From Cyanobacteria bacterium P01_A01_bin.123 (GTDB lineage: Bacteria; Cyanobacteriota; Cyanobacteriia; Phormidesmidales; Phormidesmidaceae), in NCBI GenBank assembly GCA_039815185.1, contig JBCBZT010000004.1, positions 1-64,000 on the forward strand: 64,000 nucleotides of DNA, read 5' to 3'. The translations under genes were made by a program, and so were the position numbers. The notes below the pieces were generated by a model. It was not told the DNA's origin and ran no database searches. It saw nothing but the letters and a program-made list of their open reading frames with translations. Shown piece after piece: positions 1-35,101 of this stretch (position 1 is its first letter; each line of letters opens with the position of its first letter).

Positions 1-378
1 AGCTGCGCTTCGATGATTTCAAGGGAACGCACATACAACGGTTCCGCTTCCCCGTAGCGACCCATCGATCGATACAGCTCTGCCAAATTATTCAGACTCG
101 TCCCCGTATCCGGATGCTCGGCTCCCAGCTGCGCTTCGATGATTTCAAGGGAACGCACATACAACGGTTCCGCTTCCCCGTAGCGACCCATCGATCGATA
201 CAGCTCTGCCAAATTATTCAGACTCGTCCCCGTATCCGGATGCTCGGCTCCCAACTGCGCTTCGCGGATTTCTAGGGCGCGCACATACAATGGTTCCGTT
301 TCCCCGTAGCGACCCATCGATCGATACAACCCAGCCAAATTATTCAGACTCGCCGCCGTGGACGGATGCTCGGCTCCA
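1..378 (-). repeat. Tandem 126-bp TPR-coding repeats (3 units visible; first two identical)
   Basis: 1-126 and 127-252 match base for base; 253-378 is a diverged copy. Confidence 0.95.
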
Positions 379-1727
379 AAGCGCCGTTCTGTCATCGTTA
401 GGCAGGCTTGCTTCCAGCGTTCAGCTTCGAGCCAAAGGCTCTGGCTTTCATAAAACCAACCCAATCCTACAAACGGCCAAATTGCATCCGTACTGTCGTC
501 GATCACAAGGCTCAAATCTGTAGCAACCCTAGCCATATGAGGTATTACGATATCTAGCCGCTGCTGCATTGACACAGTAACAGTCTGTGGAATTTGCTGA
601 GCGATGCTAACTAACACTTGAGCCACTCCTTTTTGCAATACCAGCGTTTGCTCGGCCAGTTCAGTTTTCAGCTTTTCAGCAATAAACTCCCGCACCAACT
701 GATGCAACTGATAACTGCCGTCCCGGTCACTTTGCAACAGGTTGCGATGCACCAACACCCCATCTAACCCATCTTCCAAGTCTTCCTCATCCCAATCGGG
801 CAGGGTCTTCGCTATCAGCTCTTGAGGAATCGGGTCTGGCGCAAATAAGCTAATTGCCGCGGCCAGCGTTTTAGCGTCCGCCTCCAAGTCTTGCCAACTC
901 AACTCAAAAGCAGCTTGCAGTGGCCCTTCATAATCCTCTGGATCGTCGGGTAGTTGCTCATAGGCTATTTCCCCAGGGGTTTGCTTAAACGCTTTGGTTT
1001 GCAGTCGTTTATTTTTTAGACGATCTTGCAACTTGGCAAAGCTCAAAATCGGATGCAGCGCCAAATAACGCCCGATCAGTTCAATGCCCAGCGGCAACCG
1101 CCCTACCCACTCACACAGCCCTTCCGCCTCAACCTGCTGTGTTTGCACCCGCGCTGGGTCATCGATCAACGTCGTCAACAGTTCCATGGCTTCACCCAGC
1201 GGTAAAACCCCCAGATCTAACCGATCAACAGGTTTACCGAACCGCTGCCGCGACGTCATTAACACCTTGAAGCTGGCATCGTCCGTGGGCAAGTAGGCTT
1301 TGACATCGCCATAGCTCTGCACATCATCCAGCAACAGCAACCGCTCCCCCGGAAACGCCGCCCGCCATTGGTCAAAACACCACCGCACCCGCGCCCGGTC
1401 ATCCGGCAACTCATCCGGCAGTTGCCAACCAAACACCGCTACCGCTGAGACGATTTGGGTAACTAGGCCGCGATCGCGCACCTTAAAATACCACCGCCCC
1501 CCTGGGTAGACATCTTTGTAGCGTCTTACATACTGCTGGGCCAACGCCGTTTTGCCAATACCCCCCATGCCTGCCACCGCAGCAATAGCCACTGGCCGCT
1601 CACCCTGAAGCTTAGAATGCAACGTTCCCAGCTCAATTTGCCGCCCCACAAACGGGCTGGCAATTAAATTCTCAAGTCCATAATCTGGGGTGCTTTTCTT
1701 TGGCGGTTCCCGTCCCGTCGTCTGAAG
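1..1727 (-). CDS. NB-ARC (STAND ATPase) + TPR repeat protein, NLR-like; runs off left edge; no clear own start codon
   Basis: Manual translation of minus frame after TAG 1730-1728: ...PFVGRQIEL...VAGMGGIGKTALAQQY (P-loop), later LLLLDDV (Walker B), GRLPLGIEL; same frame gives 42-aa TPRs (HPDTGTSLNNLAELYRSMGRYGEAEPLY). Absent from the ORF track, consistent with no stop inside the window. Confidence 0.88.
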
Positions 1728-2216
1728 CTAACCTTGATCCGTTGATGAGTTGCCAAAGTTAATCGTAGGATTCCCTTGAATCTGGATAACGGGTTGTTCT
1801 TGCTTATCGATTAGGACGCCTTGCCCGCCGCTAAAAATTTGTTGGACGTTTTTGGCTTTGACCTCATCAATATTGACGATCACCTGATGAATTTCGCCAG
1901 CTAATTGCTCAGTTTGTTGAGTAAAGTCATCATTCTGCTCAAGCTCTTTGTCGAGGTAATCTCGCAAGATGGCAATGTCGTTGCTTGAGCCTTTAGCCGC
2001 CGCCTCTAGCCGCTGATCAACCCCAGGCTTGCCCCTAAAGCATCGCTGCCAGATTAAATTTCCAAGCTGCTGTACTTTTTCATTGAACTTCGTTACCGCC
2101 GCTTCACCCAGCTTAGTGGCGGTTTCTTCAAGCTTTTTGCCCGCCCCCTCATAAAATTTGTCGAGCACAATTTTAGCGATCGCAGTCGCAGCAGCAAGGG
2201 AAAGGGCATCTAGCAT
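1728..2216 (-). CDS. Small helical protein (Bell-like effector candidate) with Q/N/G-rich C-terminal tail
   Basis: Hydrophobic N-terminal helix (LSLAAATAIAKIVLDKFYEGAG), helical body, tail QQIFSGGQGVLID...VIQIQGNPTINFGN; lies directly upstream of the NB-ARC frame. Confidence 0.75.
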   Translation of the reverse strand: MLDALSLAAATAIAKIVLDKFYEGAGKKLEETATKLGEAAVTKFNEKVQQLGNLIWQRCFRGKPGVDQRLEAAAKGSSNDIAILRDYLDKELEQNDDFTQQTEQLAGEIHQVIVNIDEVKAKNVQQIFSGGQGVLIDKQEQPVIQIQGNPTINFGNSSTDQG

Positions 2217-2495: not shown

Positions 2496-3521
2496 ATGAA
2501 TTTGCACTCTGATCAGACTCAGCCAACCCATCAATCCCGCCTATCATTCTGCAACTGGATAATGGGATTAGGACTGGCTGTCTCTGTCAGTCTGCTCAAT
2601 ACGGGTCAAGGCATAGCCCAAGCTAATGAACTGACACGAGCAGAATTCTATCGAATCCAAAATGAAGTTGAGCTGGATCCCGATCAGCAACCCCCTCGCC
2701 CCGCAGCTTTAGCTGATCCGTTTCTGCCTCGTGATACCGTTCGCACCGGCAGTCGATCGCGAACTGAGCTGTTGTTTAACGAAGGCTCTCTAGCCCGGAT
2801 TGGGGCAGAATCTATATTCAGATTTGTGCCCGGTATGCGCGCCTACCAGTTGCCCGATGGGTCAACCCGCGCAGAGGCGATATTGCAGCTAGAGCAGGGG
2901 ATTGCTTTAGTCATGGGGCCTCCTGGCAGCATCACCAACCAGGTGCAAACCCCAGAAGCCGAGATTACGATCGCGGCTGCCGATCTCCCAGATGCAGGCC
3001 CCGTGCCATTGTCAACTACGGCTGTGGTGATTGTGCATTCACCGTCCCTGGGCAAGACCAGTGTGTTCAACCTGACTCAAAATCCCGTTGTCATCACCAC
3101 TCCCGACGGTACTGAAACTGACGTGATCGAGGCAGGTGAAACCTTGAGCATCACTAACGGAGAACTCGGGCCAGTAGAAACGTTTGATTTAAATCGCTTT
3201 TATCAAACCAGTGGCCTAGCCGTCGGCTTAGGCCCCGATCAAGCTGAACAGGTGAATGACGAAAGTGCTCAAGTCCAAGACGTTCTCAACCAGATTCGGG
3301 CAGAAACTGTAGCCGCCGCGAACGATCAGTTGGCGCAACTTGACGGGTTCTGCAATCCAGATCAAGCTGCGACTCATGACTGCGTAACGACCGACGATAA
3401 CTCCCTAACCACGTTTGAAGACGAGCGCGAAATGATCACAGACACGGGGGCTGATGACGGTGGGAGTGGAGTACCCGGTGGAGGCTCCGGCACGCCTCCA
3501 GGTTCAGCCCCAACCCCCTGA
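2496..3521 (+). CDS. FecR-domain secreted protein
   Basis: Signal-like N-terminus; FecR motif DTVRTGSRSRTELLFNEGSLARIG; G/P-rich C-terminus. Confidence 0.8.
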   Translation: MNLHSDQTQPTHQSRLSFCNWIMGLGLAVSVSLLNTGQGIAQANELTRAEFYRIQNEVELDPDQQPPRPAALADPFLPRDTVRTGSRSRTELLFNEGSLARIGAESIFRFVPGMRAYQLPDGSTRAEAILQLEQGIALVMGPPGSITNQVQTPEAEITIAAADLPDAGPVPLSTTAVVIVHSPSLGKTSVFNLTQNPVVITTPDGTETDVIEAGETLSITNGELGPVETFDLNRFYQTSGLAVGLGPDQAEQVNDESAQVQDVLNQIRAETVAAANDQLAQLDGFCNPDQAATHDCVTTDDNSLTTFEDEREMITDTGADDGGSGVPGGGSGTPPGSAPTP

Positions 3522-4884
3522 TGTGCCCCAATTTGACCCACTGAGAACCATGATTCCTTGTGCACTGCCCCCCTGCGAAATCACAACACCGCCCCCCATA
3601 GTGGAGCCTCCTATAGCAGAGGCCGCGATCGCCTCGACGACGCCTCAACCAGAATCAATGGCAACGCCTCCAGCCCCCCCAGCAACACCGGAGGTTTCCC
3701 TCAAGCCTCAATGGAGTGGATCCCCAACTCAGTCTGTCAGGACAGCTGCAAAGGAAAAGGAAGAATCACCCCAAGCCCCGGCTGACAAAACATCAGTGTC
3801 GCTTTCCGAAATCGAAACCCGTTTGGCATCTGAAGTACCTGCTCCAGCAGCGATCGCCGCCAATCCCGCCACGACACAAGCACCCATACCGCCTCAAAAT
3901 GCCCCGGCTGATGTGGAACCGCTTCCAGATGCGATCGCCATCCGCCACACCACACCCAAGCTAGCACCGACCGCCCCCCTAGAACTTCCTGAGCACGTTC
4001 TAGCTCAGGCTGAAACCAATCCCCCAGCCGACTTTGACCCGGTGCCAGGGCCGCAAACATCACCCCTTGAAATCGAGCCGGACACTAGCGAAGAAGCGGT
4101 TGACGAAGCAGACATTAGCGAAGATGACCTGGGTGAGATCCTGATCTTGCAACCCAGAGCGCCAACGTCGCCTCGACCGCCAACCGCCCAGCTTTTAGTG
4201 CAGGGGTCTGCCTTCGCCAGCACCAACATTACTGGACTAGAGACACCCAGCACGGGGGGCTATCTTTTAGGCAGTGGCGCCACGCTGTTGCTAACGCCCC
4301 CCCTGGGGCCAAGCACTCGTTTGGTAGCTTCAGCAGGGGCGGGGCTAACGCGTTTTCCCAATACTGGGTCTTCTAATTACGATGCCTTTGACTTCTCTGT
4401 AGGTATTCAACAGCAGCTCAATCCCAACATGTTTGGCAGCATTGGTTGGGAGCATCGGCGACTTTATCGGGCAGGCAGCGGTGAACAACTCTCGTCTACC
4501 CATGCCGCCAACCTGACGATTGGGCGGCAGGATCAGTTTTCTGACCGTTTACGACTGGATTCTTTCTATCGGCTGCGGGCCAATTTCGTCAGCCCGGATG
4601 ATTTCAGTCGCCTCACCAATAGTCTGGGGGCCAATTTACGCTATGCCCTCAGTCCCCAGGTTGAGGGGCTGGTAGGGTATCAGCTTTCCCTAGAAGACTA
4701 CACTCGGGTTGCGCGGTTTGACACAAACCATCGCTTCCGGGCAGGCATTACCTACCGTCCCCGTCCGGATCTCTATGTGTCTGGGTTGGCTTCCTACGTG
4801 CTGGGGTCTTCCTCAGATGACACCATATCTGCCGACGGACTTTCGGTAGGGCTGGTATTCGGCTTCAATTTACCCCTGTTTTAG
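3454..4884 (+). CDS. Pro-rich linker + C-terminal outer-membrane beta-barrel protein
   Basis: C-terminal ~230 aa of alternating aromatic/hydrophobic strands ending FNLPLF (terminal Phe); start uncertain, no evident signal peptide. Confidence 0.65.
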   Translation: MTVGVEYPVEAPARLQVQPQPPDVPQFDPLRTMIPCALPPCEITTPPPIVEPPIAEAAIASTTPQPESMATPPAPPATPEVSLKPQWSGSPTQSVRTAAKEKEESPQAPADKTSVSLSEIETRLASEVPAPAAIAANPATTQAPIPPQNAPADVEPLPDAIAIRHTTPKLAPTAPLELPEHVLAQAETNPPADFDPVPGPQTSPLEIEPDTSEEAVDEADISEDDLGEILILQPRAPTSPRPPTAQLLVQGSAFASTNITGLETPSTGGYLLGSGATLLLTPPLGPSTRLVASAGAGLTRFPNTGSSNYDAFDFSVGIQQQLNPNMFGSIGWEHRRLYRAGSGEQLSSTHAANLTIGRQDQFSDRLRLDSFYRLRANFVSPDDFSRLTNSLGANLRYALSPQVEGLVGYQLSLEDYTRVARFDTNHRFRAGITYRPRPDLYVSGLASYVLGSSSDDTISADGLSVGLVFGFNLPLF

Positions 4885-4924: not shown

Positions 4925-5317
4925 TCATGGAATAAACAGACGGCTTACTCCCAAGTAGTTTTCAATAGACAGCACAATATCAGCAAGACGTGCACTACAC
5001 TGCTCTCGATATTCTCGCTCAATCAATCGATCTAAATTTCCAATCGTAATCACAGGCAGAGAGGTAGAAGTGGCTTCTTCGCGAATGGTTTGTTCCAATG
5101 AATCCTTGCCTTTTGCATTTCGGTTTGCAGTTAACAGCAGCATTTGATTAGATTGTGCAAACTGCCAGATAATTCGATCATTGCTGTCAGTAGCCAGTCC
5201 AGCCTCTTTCAGCGTCACGAAACGAATTGAGAGAAGATCAAGCCAACCTTCAGCAGCTAGAGTTCCTTGAAACAAAACGATATAACCGGTCAAATTGTAA
5301 TCAACCAGAATAATCAT
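4925..5317 (-). CDS. DUF5615-like PIN-domain toxin
   Basis: MIILVDYNL...DRIIWQFAQSNQMLLLTANR pattern; 4-bp overlap with the DUF433 gene. Confidence 0.75.
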   Translation of the reverse strand: MIILVDYNLTGYIVLFQGTLAAEGWLDLLSIRFVTLKEAGLATDSNDRIIWQFAQSNQMLLLTANRNAKGKDSLEQTIREEATSTSLPVITIGNLDRLIEREYREQCSARLADIVLSIENYLGVSRLFIP

Positions 5318-5688
5318 GCAGTTAGTCCAAGCTTCGCTTTCCAGGCTTGAAGCTTGGCATAAATATCTTCCTGCCCTGGCTTTGGAGGCAATTTGGCAAT
5401 TTGGGTCAAACGCTCTCGATTTTTGCCTTCCCAGTATTTCCTCATCTCTTGAGTTTCTTGTAAAACTAATCGATATTCTGCTTCTACCTCAGTGTGATTA
5501 GCATCAATGTAGGAGAGTGCCGCATTGAGTTCTTCTTCTGTCAACGGGAGCCAATTCATAATCAGCTTGGGTGTCCAGCCCGCGACGAGATGATCCATCA
5601 CGTCATAGATAGTGATGCGTGTGCCCGCTATTGTCAGTCCCCGCTCTGTGCGGATGATGGTTACTTGGCCACTGGATGCCGGAGTCAT
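5314..5688 (-). CDS. DUF433 antitoxin
   Basis: IAGTRITIYDVM...LTEEELNAALSY signature. Confidence 0.85.
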   Translation of the reverse strand: MTPASSGQVTIIRTERGLTIAGTRITIYDVMDHLVAGWTPKLIMNWLPLTEEELNAALSYIDANHTEVEAEYRLVLQETQEMRKYWEGKNRERLTQIAKLPPKPGQEDIYAKLQAWKAKLGLTA

Positions 5689-5767
5689 GGCATAACTTCC
5701 CAGAACTTGCTTACCTCAATCGTATCTTACGGAGAAAGTAGAGCTTGCTTTCACCAGTAATCTTGCA

Positions 5768-6919
5768 GCTAAAACCTCCATCTCGGTCACGGGCACGATT
5801 CAGCCTGAGGTGCTGAAAGACTTGATGGGTGCTGGGGATGCAGACGGCTTCTGGTCACGCTTCTTATGGGTAAGGTTACCCTTGAGACGCCTCCCGGCTC
5901 CCGATGATGGCCCCAAAATTGATTTAACCACCTGGCTGCATTCTACCTATCAACGCCTGGAGCAAGTTCCAGCTAAATCCTTCCGGCTCTCGACTGCGGC
6001 GCGAGCAACATGGCGACGCTGGCATGAGTGGATCGAGGACAAACGACTGAGCGCTGAAATTCCTGTGGAACGGGTACTGTATCCCAAATATCGCGATCGC
6101 GCTGGGAGAGTTGCGCTCATTGCCCATTGCCTCGAATATGCCAGTCAGGGGATAGAGGTACCCGAGGAAATCTCGAACGAGACCTTGGAGGCAGCAATTT
6201 CATTCACGACCTTTTGTCTGAATCAAACTCGATTACTGTACGCAGACATTGGTCTGTCGTCAGAACTGACAGGAAATCTTTTGAGAACTTGGCAGTTCAT
6301 TGAAGATAAAGGTTTATCAGAAATTACGCCCAGTGACCTACAGCGCTGGAAGCGGATTAAGATTGGGCCAAAGGACTACGCTAAAACGTCCCAATGTCGG
6401 GAGCTATTGGAGCAACTGACCCAGCTAGGCTACCTGGCTAAATTAGACAACACGTTCTGTGTGGTTGAGAAGCTTTCAACAATTGAAACTCCGATTGAAA
6501 ATATTTCAACACCTTCAAACGTATATATATCAAGTGATAGAAGGCAGTTCGTTGAAAAGTTGAAAAACTCCCCACCCTTACCTCGACAGGTATCTCTCTG
6601 TGGAGTTGAGCCCCTTTCAAGGGTGGGAACTTCGGTTGAAGCGTCTTCAAGGTTTTTAGAGGAAGACAAACCAGAGATTAGTGAGCAGTGTGTAAATACT
6701 TTGAAAAATGACTACAGAGAAATCGAACAGTTCATGGCAACGGTTCTCGATTCTGGCGAAACAACAGCGATCTCTGATGTTCTGGAAATGCTTAAAGGGC
6801 TAGCGGCTAACGAGCAAGCAGGTTTTTGGCAATGGCTAACGACCCATAATCAAACCCTCAAGGCTCAACTCAGTAGCCACCAGACTTTTCCTCAAGCAAC
6901 GGTTCGGGAGGTGAGGTAG
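5768..6919 (+). pseudogene. 5'-truncated DUF3987-like replication protein of an integrative element
   Basis: Frame upstream of GTG5810 reads KTSISVTGTIQPEVL, then DADGFWSRFLW and RAGRVALIAHCL (DUF3987 C-terminal motifs); N-terminal part missing. Confidence 0.65.
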
Positions 6920-7219
6920 ATGGATGCTCATGAGGTTACACAACTCGTCCGAGCTGAGGTCAAGCGGGTTCTTGCAGAGATGTTGGGGGTCGCTAATCAA
7001 CCTGAGCCAGAGACGTTGCCGTTGCAAAAAGCTGTGACTGTTTTAGGCTACGATAGCGTTCGCCAAATCTACAAAGACATTGAGAATGGCCTCCTCAGAG
7101 TCGGCATTGAAGTCCAAGATCGGCGCAGACTGGGCACTCAAAAAGCGAGGTATTACATCAACATTCCGGCGACTCGGAAGCGTCTTCAGAGTCCTCCTGA
7201 GAAACGCCGGGGGCTTTAG
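6920..7219 (+). CDS. Small DNA-binding protein, putative excisionase/RDF
   Basis: 99 aa, basic, HTH-like AVTVLGYDSVRQIYKDIENG; GAGG upstream; convergent with the integrase. Confidence 0.65.
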   Translation: MDAHEVTQLVRAEVKRVLAEMLGVANQPEPETLPLQKAVTVLGYDSVRQIYKDIENGLLRVGIEVQDRRRLGTQKARYYINIPATRKRLQSPPEKRRGL

Positions 7220-8306
7220 GCCCAGAGGCAATTGCACGATTGTAGGCAGCTTGCTGTTCTGCTGCCGATAGCCACCGATGGTAGGTCGCTGTATGCACCG
7301 CAACAGAATGACCCATCATTCGAGCCGCGATACTTGAAGTTAGGTCAAATTTGATACAACGCACAGCATAAGCGTGGCGAAGATCATAGGCGACAAACGG
7401 TAACTGGTACATTTTGAGTTGATGTGCAACTTGGAGTCCGTAACGCTGAAAATCTGGTGTTCCATCTTCATGCAGATATTTCAGTTGGGGAGGTTTCCCT
7501 TCCAATATGTTCCATTCCTTTACCCATTCAGGGTAGAGAGCTGAAGTTTGGCGAGGCCCTGTTTTGCCATCTAAGACATTCCAGACAAGTGGATTTTCGG
7601 TAGGTTTTAGGAAAAAAGCCTCATGGGGACGCACGCCCAGGCAAGCAATCACACTGTAAAGCCAGCGCCACGAAGGGTTTGGAATCTTTGAGAAAAAGCC
7701 AGCAATGGTTTCGTCGCTTGGTAATTCTCTAGGAACTTCCGAACGCCCAGTTTGATATTTGCCTCTATATGGAGATAAATCTATTGAAATTCCAGCGTAT
7801 TCAGCCAGACGTTGAAAGTAGCCAGTTGTCCGCTGACGTTCTCGAGTATTTTCTTGAGTTGTGAGCAAAGCACTAAGGATATTTTCAGCAGTCAGGGGAT
7901 TGTTCTGCGGTAAACGGTTGTAAGCTTTTTGCCAATGCCTTTTCCAAGTCTTCTCAGAACATTTACCGCTTTTCAGCCAGTACTGACGAAACTCGTCTGT
8001 CCATTCCTGGACAGTGCGTTCCTCACGAGAAGTTTTGCCTAACCAGGGAGCCCAGTCAAATGTCCCTTCTTCAACCATTGCCCACAAGGTTTGTGCTAAC
8101 TTCTCAGCCTTCTTGAGCCCCTTTTGAGTAGCAGGCAAGCCTCCCCGAGGATGCGTGACATCCTGACGATGGGGTTTAACTTTGATCGAGTCAGGTTTTG
8201 GCGGCAGAACAAGGCGTAGATAGAGCCACTTGTTGACCTCCTTGACAGTTACGCGGATACCAAGGCTTCGAAGGCGAGCATTCGTTTCGTTTAGATTCAG
8301 ATCCAT
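7158..8306 (-). CDS. Tyrosine recombinase / phage-type integrase
   Basis: GVRPHE (R), YDLRHAYA (HxxR region), MMGHS...H...Y catalytic motifs; likely start MDLNL at 8306. Confidence 0.92.
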   Translation of the reverse strand: MDLNLNETNARLRSLGIRVTVKEVNKWLYLRLVLPPKPDSIKVKPHRQDVTHPRGGLPATQKGLKKAEKLAQTLWAMVEEGTFDWAPWLGKTSREERTVQEWTDEFRQYWLKSGKCSEKTWKRHWQKAYNRLPQNNPLTAENILSALLTTQENTRERQRTTGYFQRLAEYAGISIDLSPYRGKYQTGRSEVPRELPSDETIAGFFSKIPNPSWRWLYSVIACLGVRPHEAFFLKPTENPLVWNVLDGKTGPRQTSALYPEWVKEWNILEGKPPQLKYLHEDGTPDFQRYGLQVAHQLKMYQLPFVAYDLRHAYAVRCIKFDLTSSIAARMMGHSVAVHTATYHRWLSAAEQQAAYNRAIASGPKAPGVSQEDSEDASESPEC

Positions 8307-8325
8307 GTGACAGCTACCTCTAACC

Positions 8326-8378
8326 ATTCACCATATATTCACCACATTACTGGTGAAAATCAGGAAAAAATGGTGAAT
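8326..8378. promoter_or_regulatory. Cluster of TTCACCA motifs, putative integrase arm-type binding sites
   Basis: ATTCACCA at 8326 and 8337; inverted TGGTGAA at 8351 and 8371; located between int start and tRNA. Confidence 0.55.
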
Positions 8379-8440
8379 GCTGAACTGTCTAAATTGACAA
8401 ATTTCACGCCTGAAAAGCCTGAAACCATTGACTTAAAGGA

Positions 8441-8514
8441 CGGGACTGGCGCGATTCGAACGCGCGACCTACCGCTTAGGAGGCGGTTGCTCTATCCAGC
8501 TGAGCTACAGCCCC
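8441..8514 (-). tRNA. tRNA-Arg(CCT)
   Basis: GGGGCTGTAGCTCAGCTGGATAGAGCAACCGCCT-CCT-AAGCGGTAGGTCGCGCGTTCGAATCGCGCCAGTCCCG cloverleaf. Confidence 0.96.
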
Positions 8515-8637
8515 AGAGCCATTTGGCATCAATCAAAATATACACCGAGGGTTTAAGACCGCCCAGGCAAGATCAAGAAACTTTTAGCAAATACCGAAGC
8601 CATCAATCTCATAAGAGTGAGCCATAGAGATAAGGAA

Positions 8638-34892: not shown

Positions 34893-35101
34893 TATGATCA
34901 AAGAACGGGCAGTCTATCAATCTGTCGAGTAGAATAGCGTTCAGTATAGAGATGTCCTAGTCTTGCATCTGATGTGTGATGGCTAGAGACGCTGAGTGTC
35001 CCCAACTGGCTAAATTAGGGATCGATTGTCTATGATCGGTTAGCCAGTACATCTCCCTAAATATCTATTGGACTACATTTATCGGATTTAGGTTATTACT
35101 C

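Follow-up and report, generated by a model that had tools for sequence, protein, structure and literature searches.

A conserved in-frame stop codon and a downstream RNA element between Bell-like effectors and NLRs of cyanobacteria: candidate programmed readthrough

Related systems and the locus in the window

Bell/BASS/NLR gene pairs have been described in multicellular bacteria by a screen that required an amyloid motif common to both genes, and the Bell domain was modelled with five helices (10.1101/2020.01.06.895854); Bab/Agp is one such pair (10.1101/2024.11.07.622273). Stop codon readthrough is known from the gag-pol signal of MoMLV, in which a leaky stop is followed by an 8-nt spacer, then by a pseudoknot of the H type, giving an abundant short and a minor long product (PMC13517186). 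On bacterial ribosomes, near-cognate decoding of stops at a few percent is known for Qbeta coat/A1 and B. subtilis sacB and cat-86 (PMC7026636, PMC13517186), and near-cognate decoding likewise applies to in-frame stops in prokaryotic genes (PMC7918605). UAA is the least leaky of the stops, and C at +4 is a leaky context (PMC7026636). In bacterial SECIS and pyrrolysine recoding, the stop is followed by a hairpin.

We analyzed a 64,000-nt stretch of DNA from Cyanobacteria bacterium P01_A01_bin.123 (the window). The locus lies on the minus strand and starts with a Bell-like effector ORF of 162 aa (1728..2216), which ends in an in-frame TAG (1730-1728) followed by C, as originally noted. Past the TAG, the effector frame stays open for 575 codons, up to window position 3, the end of contig C35. 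This frame encodes an NB-ARC domain (990..1628; Pfam E 6e-9, residues 34-246 of the frame) and TPR repeats (TPR_12/TPR_10 in Pfam, 3..359) cut by the contig end, in agreement with the original prediction of an effector running through the stop into an NLR. No start codon stands ahead of the NB-ARC: the earliest in-frame GTG is codon 27 after the stop (1649) and falls within the FVGR motif, TTG does not occur until codon 36, and ATG not until codon 54 (1568), within the P-loop. The absence of an ATG ahead of the P-loop had also been read correctly.

The effector was modelled with six helices over residues 7-124 (mean pLDDT 72.7), and its tail had a pLDDT below 50. It resembles Bell proteins in having a helical domain of about 100 aa whose N-terminal helix is hydrophobic, and in starting with an acidic residue at one of positions 2 and 3 (Asp at position 3). 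No family match was found for the ORF in Pfam, NCBIfam, PHROG or PADLOC, and no Bell model was among the Pfam and NCBIfam scan results. The Bell label in the original prediction thus stood on helical features, and it is used here in that sense, with no profile match behind it. A fold search with the model gave no clear match (best Z 5.7), which is not evidence of a novel fold. In the ESM Atlas, the effector fell near unnamed cyanobacterial clusters, one of which has HetE-N on 12% of its members; we treat this as a lead, and a literature search on HetE-N found nothing.

The effector tail (1746..1862; residues 119-157) is a candidate amyloid signalling motif. Its content of Q, N, G, V and I is 64%, compared to 31% in the effector body, in line with the C-terminal motifs of about 25 aa, rich in these residues, of Bell/BASS/NLR pairs. 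The tail aligned to the N-terminus of an ATG-bearing NLR at another locus, L007, with a score of 59, whereas 500 shuffles reached 47 at most; its alignment with the linker of a natural fusion protein, P0002, was weak (48 versus 45). The core tetrad of RHIM and BASS3 motifs is [IV]Q[IVL]G. The tail has neither this tetrad nor a Pfam RHIM match and was assigned to neither group; its likeness to RHIM is weaker than originally proposed.

Like the described Bell/BASS/NLR pairs, the locus encodes a short protein of several helices, the first of them hydrophobic, which bears an acidic residue at position 2-3 and a Q/N/G/V/I-rich tail and is adjoined by a collinear NB-ARC/TPR frame, and its relatives without the RNA element described below are exactly such pairs (10.1101/2020.01.06.895854). 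Unlike in those pairs, the NLR of element-bearing loci has neither a start nor a motif copy, an in-frame stop and an RNA element stand in for the start of a second gene, and the same element serves TIR and hydrolase effectors too. The locus would work like a pair, yet we do not file it as one. The likeness to the MoMLV signal is one of layout, with no sequence homology claimed: as in gammaretroviruses, a conserved in-frame stop has coding selection beyond it and an 8-nt spacer precedes a stem. The cyanobacterial element differs in residing on bacterial chromosomes and plasmids, in meeting RF1/RF2 and not eRF1, in employing mostly UGA and in having a putative knot of about 32 nt versus 50 nt. 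Qbeta, sacB and cat-86 are single genes for which no conserved downstream structure is named in the available portions of PMC7026636 and PMC13517186, whereas the cyanobacterial element is family-wide, structured and found in immune genes. In contrast to SECIS and pyrrolysine recoding, UGA and UAG occur at one site, with no cognate tRNA in the source genome assembly and no Rfam match at the five loci scanned, and the element was not placed with these systems.

The conserved stop and the RNA element downstream

Two paralogues in the source genome (on contigs C10 and C85) and seven relatives carry a TAG or TGA 51-52 codons ahead of the P-loop, with no Met between. Since the DNA after the stop is conserved at third codon positions in these relatives, a search pattern was built from post-stop bases only. 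This stop-blind pattern was run on 401 genomes of the class and at least 120 metagenome stretches. The raw count of 53/401 genomes is inflated, as a reversed control pattern matched in dozens of genomes, and matches were therefore filtered by a downstream P-loop. Among 179 matches examined, 64 (including ten copies behind the pattern itself and some near-duplicates) had an in-frame P-loop within 120 codons, and the stop was at the predicted place in all 64 (55 TGA, nine TAG). A stop was present in 13 of the other 115 matches: nine were members with other or cut-off partners, and four (L085, L091, L167 and L188), which had no effector or NLR, were dropped as chance. In viral contigs, a single match was found, with a sense codon at the stop site and no NLR, and was likewise dismissed as chance.

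Altogether, 110 distinct cyanobacterial junctions join an effector ORF in frame to a start-less NLR, and every one has TGA (94) or TAG (16), with no TAA; the junctions share kinship, so these counts are not independent events. The stop lies at an equal distance from the P-loop in the two paralogues of the source genome and in about 20 cyanobacterial families, a recurrence beyond chance. TAA is the stop of 1557 among 3887 long ORFs in the source genome, and of 19 among the 71 Bell-like genes that lack the element. C follows the stop in 103 of the 110 junctions, and TGA-C is the rarest stop tetranucleotide of the source genome (163 of 1012 TGA). Both the absence of TAA and C at +4 fit the known order of leakiness (PMC7026636). 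Seven plasmid records selected by protein comprised five with TGA and the element in frame (four from Acaryochloris marina and one Nostoc plasmid), one with a shortened loop and the NLR out of frame, and one unrelated; RefSeq annotates two genes at each element-bearing plasmid junction. Three plasmid copies are present in Acaryochloris marina MBIC11017.

The downstream element begins with an 8-nt spacer (1720..1727, minus strand), whose length is fixed in alignments A3 and A4. It is followed by stem 1 with an 8-nt loop (1702..1719, minus strand), in which 1719-1715 pair with 1706-1702 around loop 1714-1707; four of the five pairs form in the window copy. Counted from the first post-stop base, positions 9-13 pair with 22-26, and the top mutual-information pairs were 10-25 and 12-23. 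The latter was formed in 69/69 sequences as GC, CG or UG, and the search pattern made no demand for pairing at these positions. Across 72 sequences, 97.5% of stem 1 cells were paired and two pairs had two-sided changes, the shuffles used for comparison ignoring relatedness. RNAalifold predicted stem 1 as the sole helix in 79 sequences, with two-sided changes in four of the five pairs. G-U pairs outnumbered A-C combinations by 28 to 1, which points to sense-strand RNA. Sequence covariation thus shows stem 1 with an 8-nt spacer ahead of it.

Downstream of stem 1, an A-rich linker (1701-1691) and a C-run (1690-1688) make up the rest of the element (1688..1701, minus strand), and the C-run pairs with a GGG in the loop to form the proposed stem 2. 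The first cross-pair test of stem 2, on 69 junctions, was not significant (187/1000). With 110 junctions, diverged members now included, pairing of each loop with its own tail scored 10.82 versus 10.03+-0.15 for cross-pairing (0/1000); the difference was clearest in loops without GGG (n = 35), where the scores were 10.03 and 7.76+-0.31. At one locus, L307, both strands were replaced and six pairs kept. Stem 2 is 3 bp only in the window copy, is 66% paired in a fixed register, and its register varies. An H-type pseudoknot formed via stem 2 is probable.

When five loci were scanned against Rfam with E values allowed up to 5, nothing matched at their junctions. Searches with covariance models ran on cyanobacterial genomes and found three element copies in the source genome; with a second model, matches came from 24 of 151 genomes in the class and from nine of 48 in one genus. 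Of 39 distinct matches, 36 were examined and comprised 29 TGA, seven TAG and no sense codon, with the stop columns included in the model. Two other readings of the element were rejected: an integron attC-like site (no covariation, key bases variable) and an overlapping +1-frame peptide, as pairing explains the conserved bases and several copies have a stop in the +1 frame. A possible basal helix over the stop was also dropped; 82% of its cells were paired, yet two-sided changes were seen in just two cells and RNAalifold did not predict it. One further locus, L297 (stop at oriented position 721), has TGA-C, a start-less in-frame NLR and a different hairpin at +9, and is possibly a highly diverged element.

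Coding selection was estimated on either side of the stop. The dN/dS was 0.20 for the effector (10 pairs), 0.19 for codons 15-45 after the stop and 0.23 for the NB-ARC domain (20 non-overlapping pairs for both). In the 14 codons of the element, pS fell to 0.16, compared to 0.35-0.40 elsewhere, and dN/dS was 0.79. In seven copies, the loop has 9 nt and the linker is one base shorter in compensation, and in four the loop is 3 nt longer, so that the frame is kept; these groups are related and perhaps represent few events. By these measures, the start-less segment is under purifying selection and is probably translated. Some copies may be broken: L230, of which a copy is also seen on a plasmid of Leptolyngbya boryana, combines a loop of 7 nt with an out-of-frame NLR, and L304, L063 and L119 have the element with only a short frame after it. 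In both L230 and L207, the 7-nt loop lies within a G7 run and the NLR is out of frame, which could be a frameshift mutation or a slippage-controlled on/off state.

The original prediction had named alignment of orthologues as the check, with a sense codon in close relatives, a sequencing error or independent initiation of the NLR as grounds for dropping it. No sense codon was seen in the 64 pattern matches or the 36 covariance-model matches, and the stop is kept as TAG or TGA across genomes with purifying selection on both sides, which argues against an error or a recent nonsense mutation. Independent initiation of the NLR is unlikely, as 39 of 55 junctions have no ATG, GTG or TTG ahead of the F.GR motif (16 have GTG or TTG there). 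The in-frame stop is, on sequence grounds, a conserved feature and not a mutation.

Gene arrangements with and without the element

A search of 401 genomes with a profile built from 39 Bell-like effectors gave 381 matches in 182 of them. We examined 30 loci and 100 regions out of the 381, and after eight with incomplete C-termini were dropped, 127 were left. The 56 genes of the element class ended in TGA (48) or TAG (eight), and 53 were open in frame for at least 100 codons. The 71 genes without the element ended in TAG (36), TAA (19) or TGA (16), and 17 were open; they include three diverged members and two internal nonsense stops. Since the profile was derived from element-bearing genes, the class sizes are not frequencies.

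Among genes with a downstream P-loop, the two classes differed sharply. In the element class, the NLR was in frame in 51 of 52 cases, had its own ATG at least 30 codons ahead of the P-loop in three of 52, and carried a second copy of the effector tail in none of 52. In the class without the element, the NLRs were spread over the three frames (19/15/20), 46 of 54 had their own ATG, and 44 of 54 had a tail copy. The element and the two-gene arrangement are thus shown to be mutually exclusive among the sequences compared, and the proposal that one motif copy serves both proteins gains support. On a quick tree of 98 effectors, presence of the element changes at least seven times, and by this sequence-based estimate the one-stop and two-gene arrangements interconvert. 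Broken copies occur in the family (L209, L211, L253 and L318). In seven two-gene pairs (L254, L260, L275, L283, L284, L300 and L310), an unassigned helical domain precedes the tail copy of the NLR.

The element also joins partners other than Bell-like effectors and NB-ARC-TPR receptors. Upstream partners include TIR_2 (three tested, all match) and an alpha/beta hydrolase; downstream partners include NB-ARC-TPR, NACHT, NA-iREase1-NACHT and CHAT. Several element copies are on plasmids or near integrases. No recurrent neighbor, and no deaminase, was found among 61 flanking ORFs. A protein search with residues 1-235 gave five matches among 6685 candidates of 405-1292 aa, four of which begin past the element. 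None of the five is a Bell-NLR fusion, and no such fusion with a sense codon at the stop site was found that would point to a tolerated residue. In P0002, a similar tail lies behind other domains and leads, with no stop between, into the same NB-ARC-TPR.

Three loci of family f7 (L252, with the stop at 763, L256 and L322, from genomes G096, G056 and G139) reach the NLR differently. Their effectors end in an A-AAA-AAG/A run at the stop, a long GC-rich predicted stem follows this slippery run, and the NLR is in the -1 frame, with no ATG and no tail copy. They appear to be candidates for a programmed -1 frameshift giving the same effector-NLR fusion. The three form one group (support 87) inside the clade holding the window locus, among element-bearing Bell-like effectors, and this nesting suggests that one recoding signal was replaced by another.

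Proposed mechanism and alternatives

We consider programmed readthrough, yielding free effector and an effector-NLR from one gene, the best reading of these data (probability about 0.8). The locus would be transcribed and translated as one unit whose stop is programmed to leak. Translation would mostly terminate at the UAG, freeing the Bell-like effector together with its amyloid-like tail. The probable pseudoknot, which starts 8 nt 3' of the stop, at the mRNA entry channel, would slow a minority of ribosomes, and the weak U(AG/GA)-C context would aid near-cognate amino acid insertion at a few percent. The product, effector-tail-NB-ARC-TPR, would be rare beside abundant free effector. Once bound to its ligand, the rare fusion would oligomerize, and its clustered tails, as proposed from the analogy to Bab/Agp (10.1101/2024.11.07.622273), would act as a template for the free effector. 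The N-terminal helix of the effector would then damage the membrane in an abortive defense. In the TIR and hydrolase versions, homotypic recruitment may take the place of amyloid. We infer from sequence that readthrough occurs, as well as its rate and the inserted residue, and the same holds for templating by amyloid, for damage to the membrane and for a role against phages; that a pseudoknot drives readthrough on bacterial ribosomes is proposed by analogy with eukaryotic viruses. At a relative's locus (L354:1000-2050), four assembled contigs (three RNA-labelled, one unlabelled) leave 1504-1575, which holds the stop, uncovered.

The original interpretation of readthrough is supported, while it missed the RNA element 3' of the stop and the TIR and hydrolase partners and overstated the likeness to RHIM. 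It is likely, with slightly less confidence than readthrough itself, that the leaky stop, spacer and pseudoknot form a portable recoding cassette between interchangeable effectors and sensors that sets the effector:receptor ratio. An extension in which leakiness is regulated, the loop and A-rich linker binding a ligand or sensing tRNAs or release factors changed by infection so that receptor is made mainly under attack, is speculative and rather doubtful.

Several explanations keep the conserved junction and dispense with readthrough. The one we would rank first, and still regard as improbable, is termination followed by reinitiation at the codon right after the stop (CTG or similar), helped by the hairpin and giving a separate NLR. 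That codon is indeed CTG in 55 of 110 junctions and GTG in three, and RefSeq starts one Acaryochloris CDS directly past the stop; the other 52 are CTA, CCA, CTC, CCG, CTT, AAG, GAG, GAA and ATC, which are poor or non-start codons. Reinitiation also leaves the absence of TAA unexplained, and a separate NLR with no effector or tail copy (0/52) would have no evident signalling route. A-to-I editing that converts UAG or UGA to UGG (Trp) in a fraction of the transcripts, the basal helix enclosing the stop, would account for the use of TAG and TGA without TAA, and such a helix can be drawn. The helix barely covaries, however, and was not predicted, the bases it would pair with the stop do not vary with the type of stop (nine different dinucleotides occur among TAG copies), the adenosine to be edited would sit one base apart in TAG and TGA, and no deaminase or recurrent neighbor appeared in the 61 neighboring ORFs or seven annotated plasmid regions; editing is marginally less probable still. 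About as improbable as editing is that the same fusion arises by a ribosomal hop over the stop or by paired frameshifts. These would explain the frame, start and tail-copy data equally well, and U precedes the stop in 54/69 junctions, but the pre-stop codon takes 23 forms, no matching landing codon or slippery run was found, and reading past the stop is in frame 0 from codon 15 onward.

We regard it as very improbable that the inverted repeat acts as DNA, being a site of recombination or protein binding at which effectors and sensors are reshuffled, with rearrangement removing the stop. The effectors and sensors that the element joins are indeed diverse, the Bell tree requires at least seven changes in its presence, and several copies are on plasmids or near integrases. 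Against a DNA site, the two-sided changes and the 28 G-U versus one A-C fit RNA, frame-compensating indels need translation, and no rearranged stop-free product was found among pattern matches or in the protein search. Hardly credible at this stage is a recent nonsense mutation or sequencing error that left the NLR half a pseudogene: broken copies do exist in the family (the four listed above), yet the stop holds the same position in 110 distinct junctions, as both TAG and TGA, with a dN/dS of about 0.2 on either side. In the 133-contig assembly, ARAGORN found neither tRNAs whose anticodon is UCA, CUA or UUA nor a suppressor or selenocysteine tRNA; both tRNA-Trp genes of the source genome have a CCA anticodon.

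The mechanism class and the protein parts of programmed readthrough are known, whereas the element, its bacterial setting and a one-gene, two-product NLR architecture appear to be undescribed. In the literature searched, which covered sources other than subscription journals, we found no description of the element or of effector-bacterial NLR readthrough. The terms 'stop codon' and 'readthrough' are absent from the main texts, as available, of 10.1101/2020.01.06.895854, whose supplements may list such loci, and 10.1101/2024.11.07.622273, and term look-ups in PMC7918605, PMC13581612, PMC9815663 and PMC13092985 likewise gave no description of the element or of such readthrough. If confirmed, this would be a family-wide, structure-stimulated readthrough signal on bacterial ribosomes, without precedent in the literature searched or Rfam, and a 40-nt element with more than 100 natural variants for probing the action of downstream RNA on RF1 and RF2. 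It would also constitute a third NLR signalling architecture, between all-in-one receptors and two-gene amyloid pairs, in which the excess of effector over receptor is fixed within a single gene. Such NLRs would then be annotated with wrong N-termini and as effector-less, and screens demanding a motif common to two genes would miss them.

The surroundings of the locus and of related genes were also inspected. Genes for a FecR-domain protein and an outer-membrane beta-barrel occupy window positions 2496-4884; their transcription leads away from the locus, and no link with it was seen. Elsewhere in the source genome, a STAND-like ATPase-TPR gene on contig C31 (minus strand) has an in-frame TAG at 35074 without the element and is probably broken. 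The C10 paralogue (C10:52700-62057) adjoins ORFs that, read by eye, resemble prophage structural genes, and an integrase fragment. A mobile island lies 3-6 kb from the window locus (4925-8515) and contains an integrase (phrog_1, 7158-8327), a tRNA-Arg (8438-8515), a DUF3987 protein, a small possible excisionase and a DUF433/DUF5615 pair.
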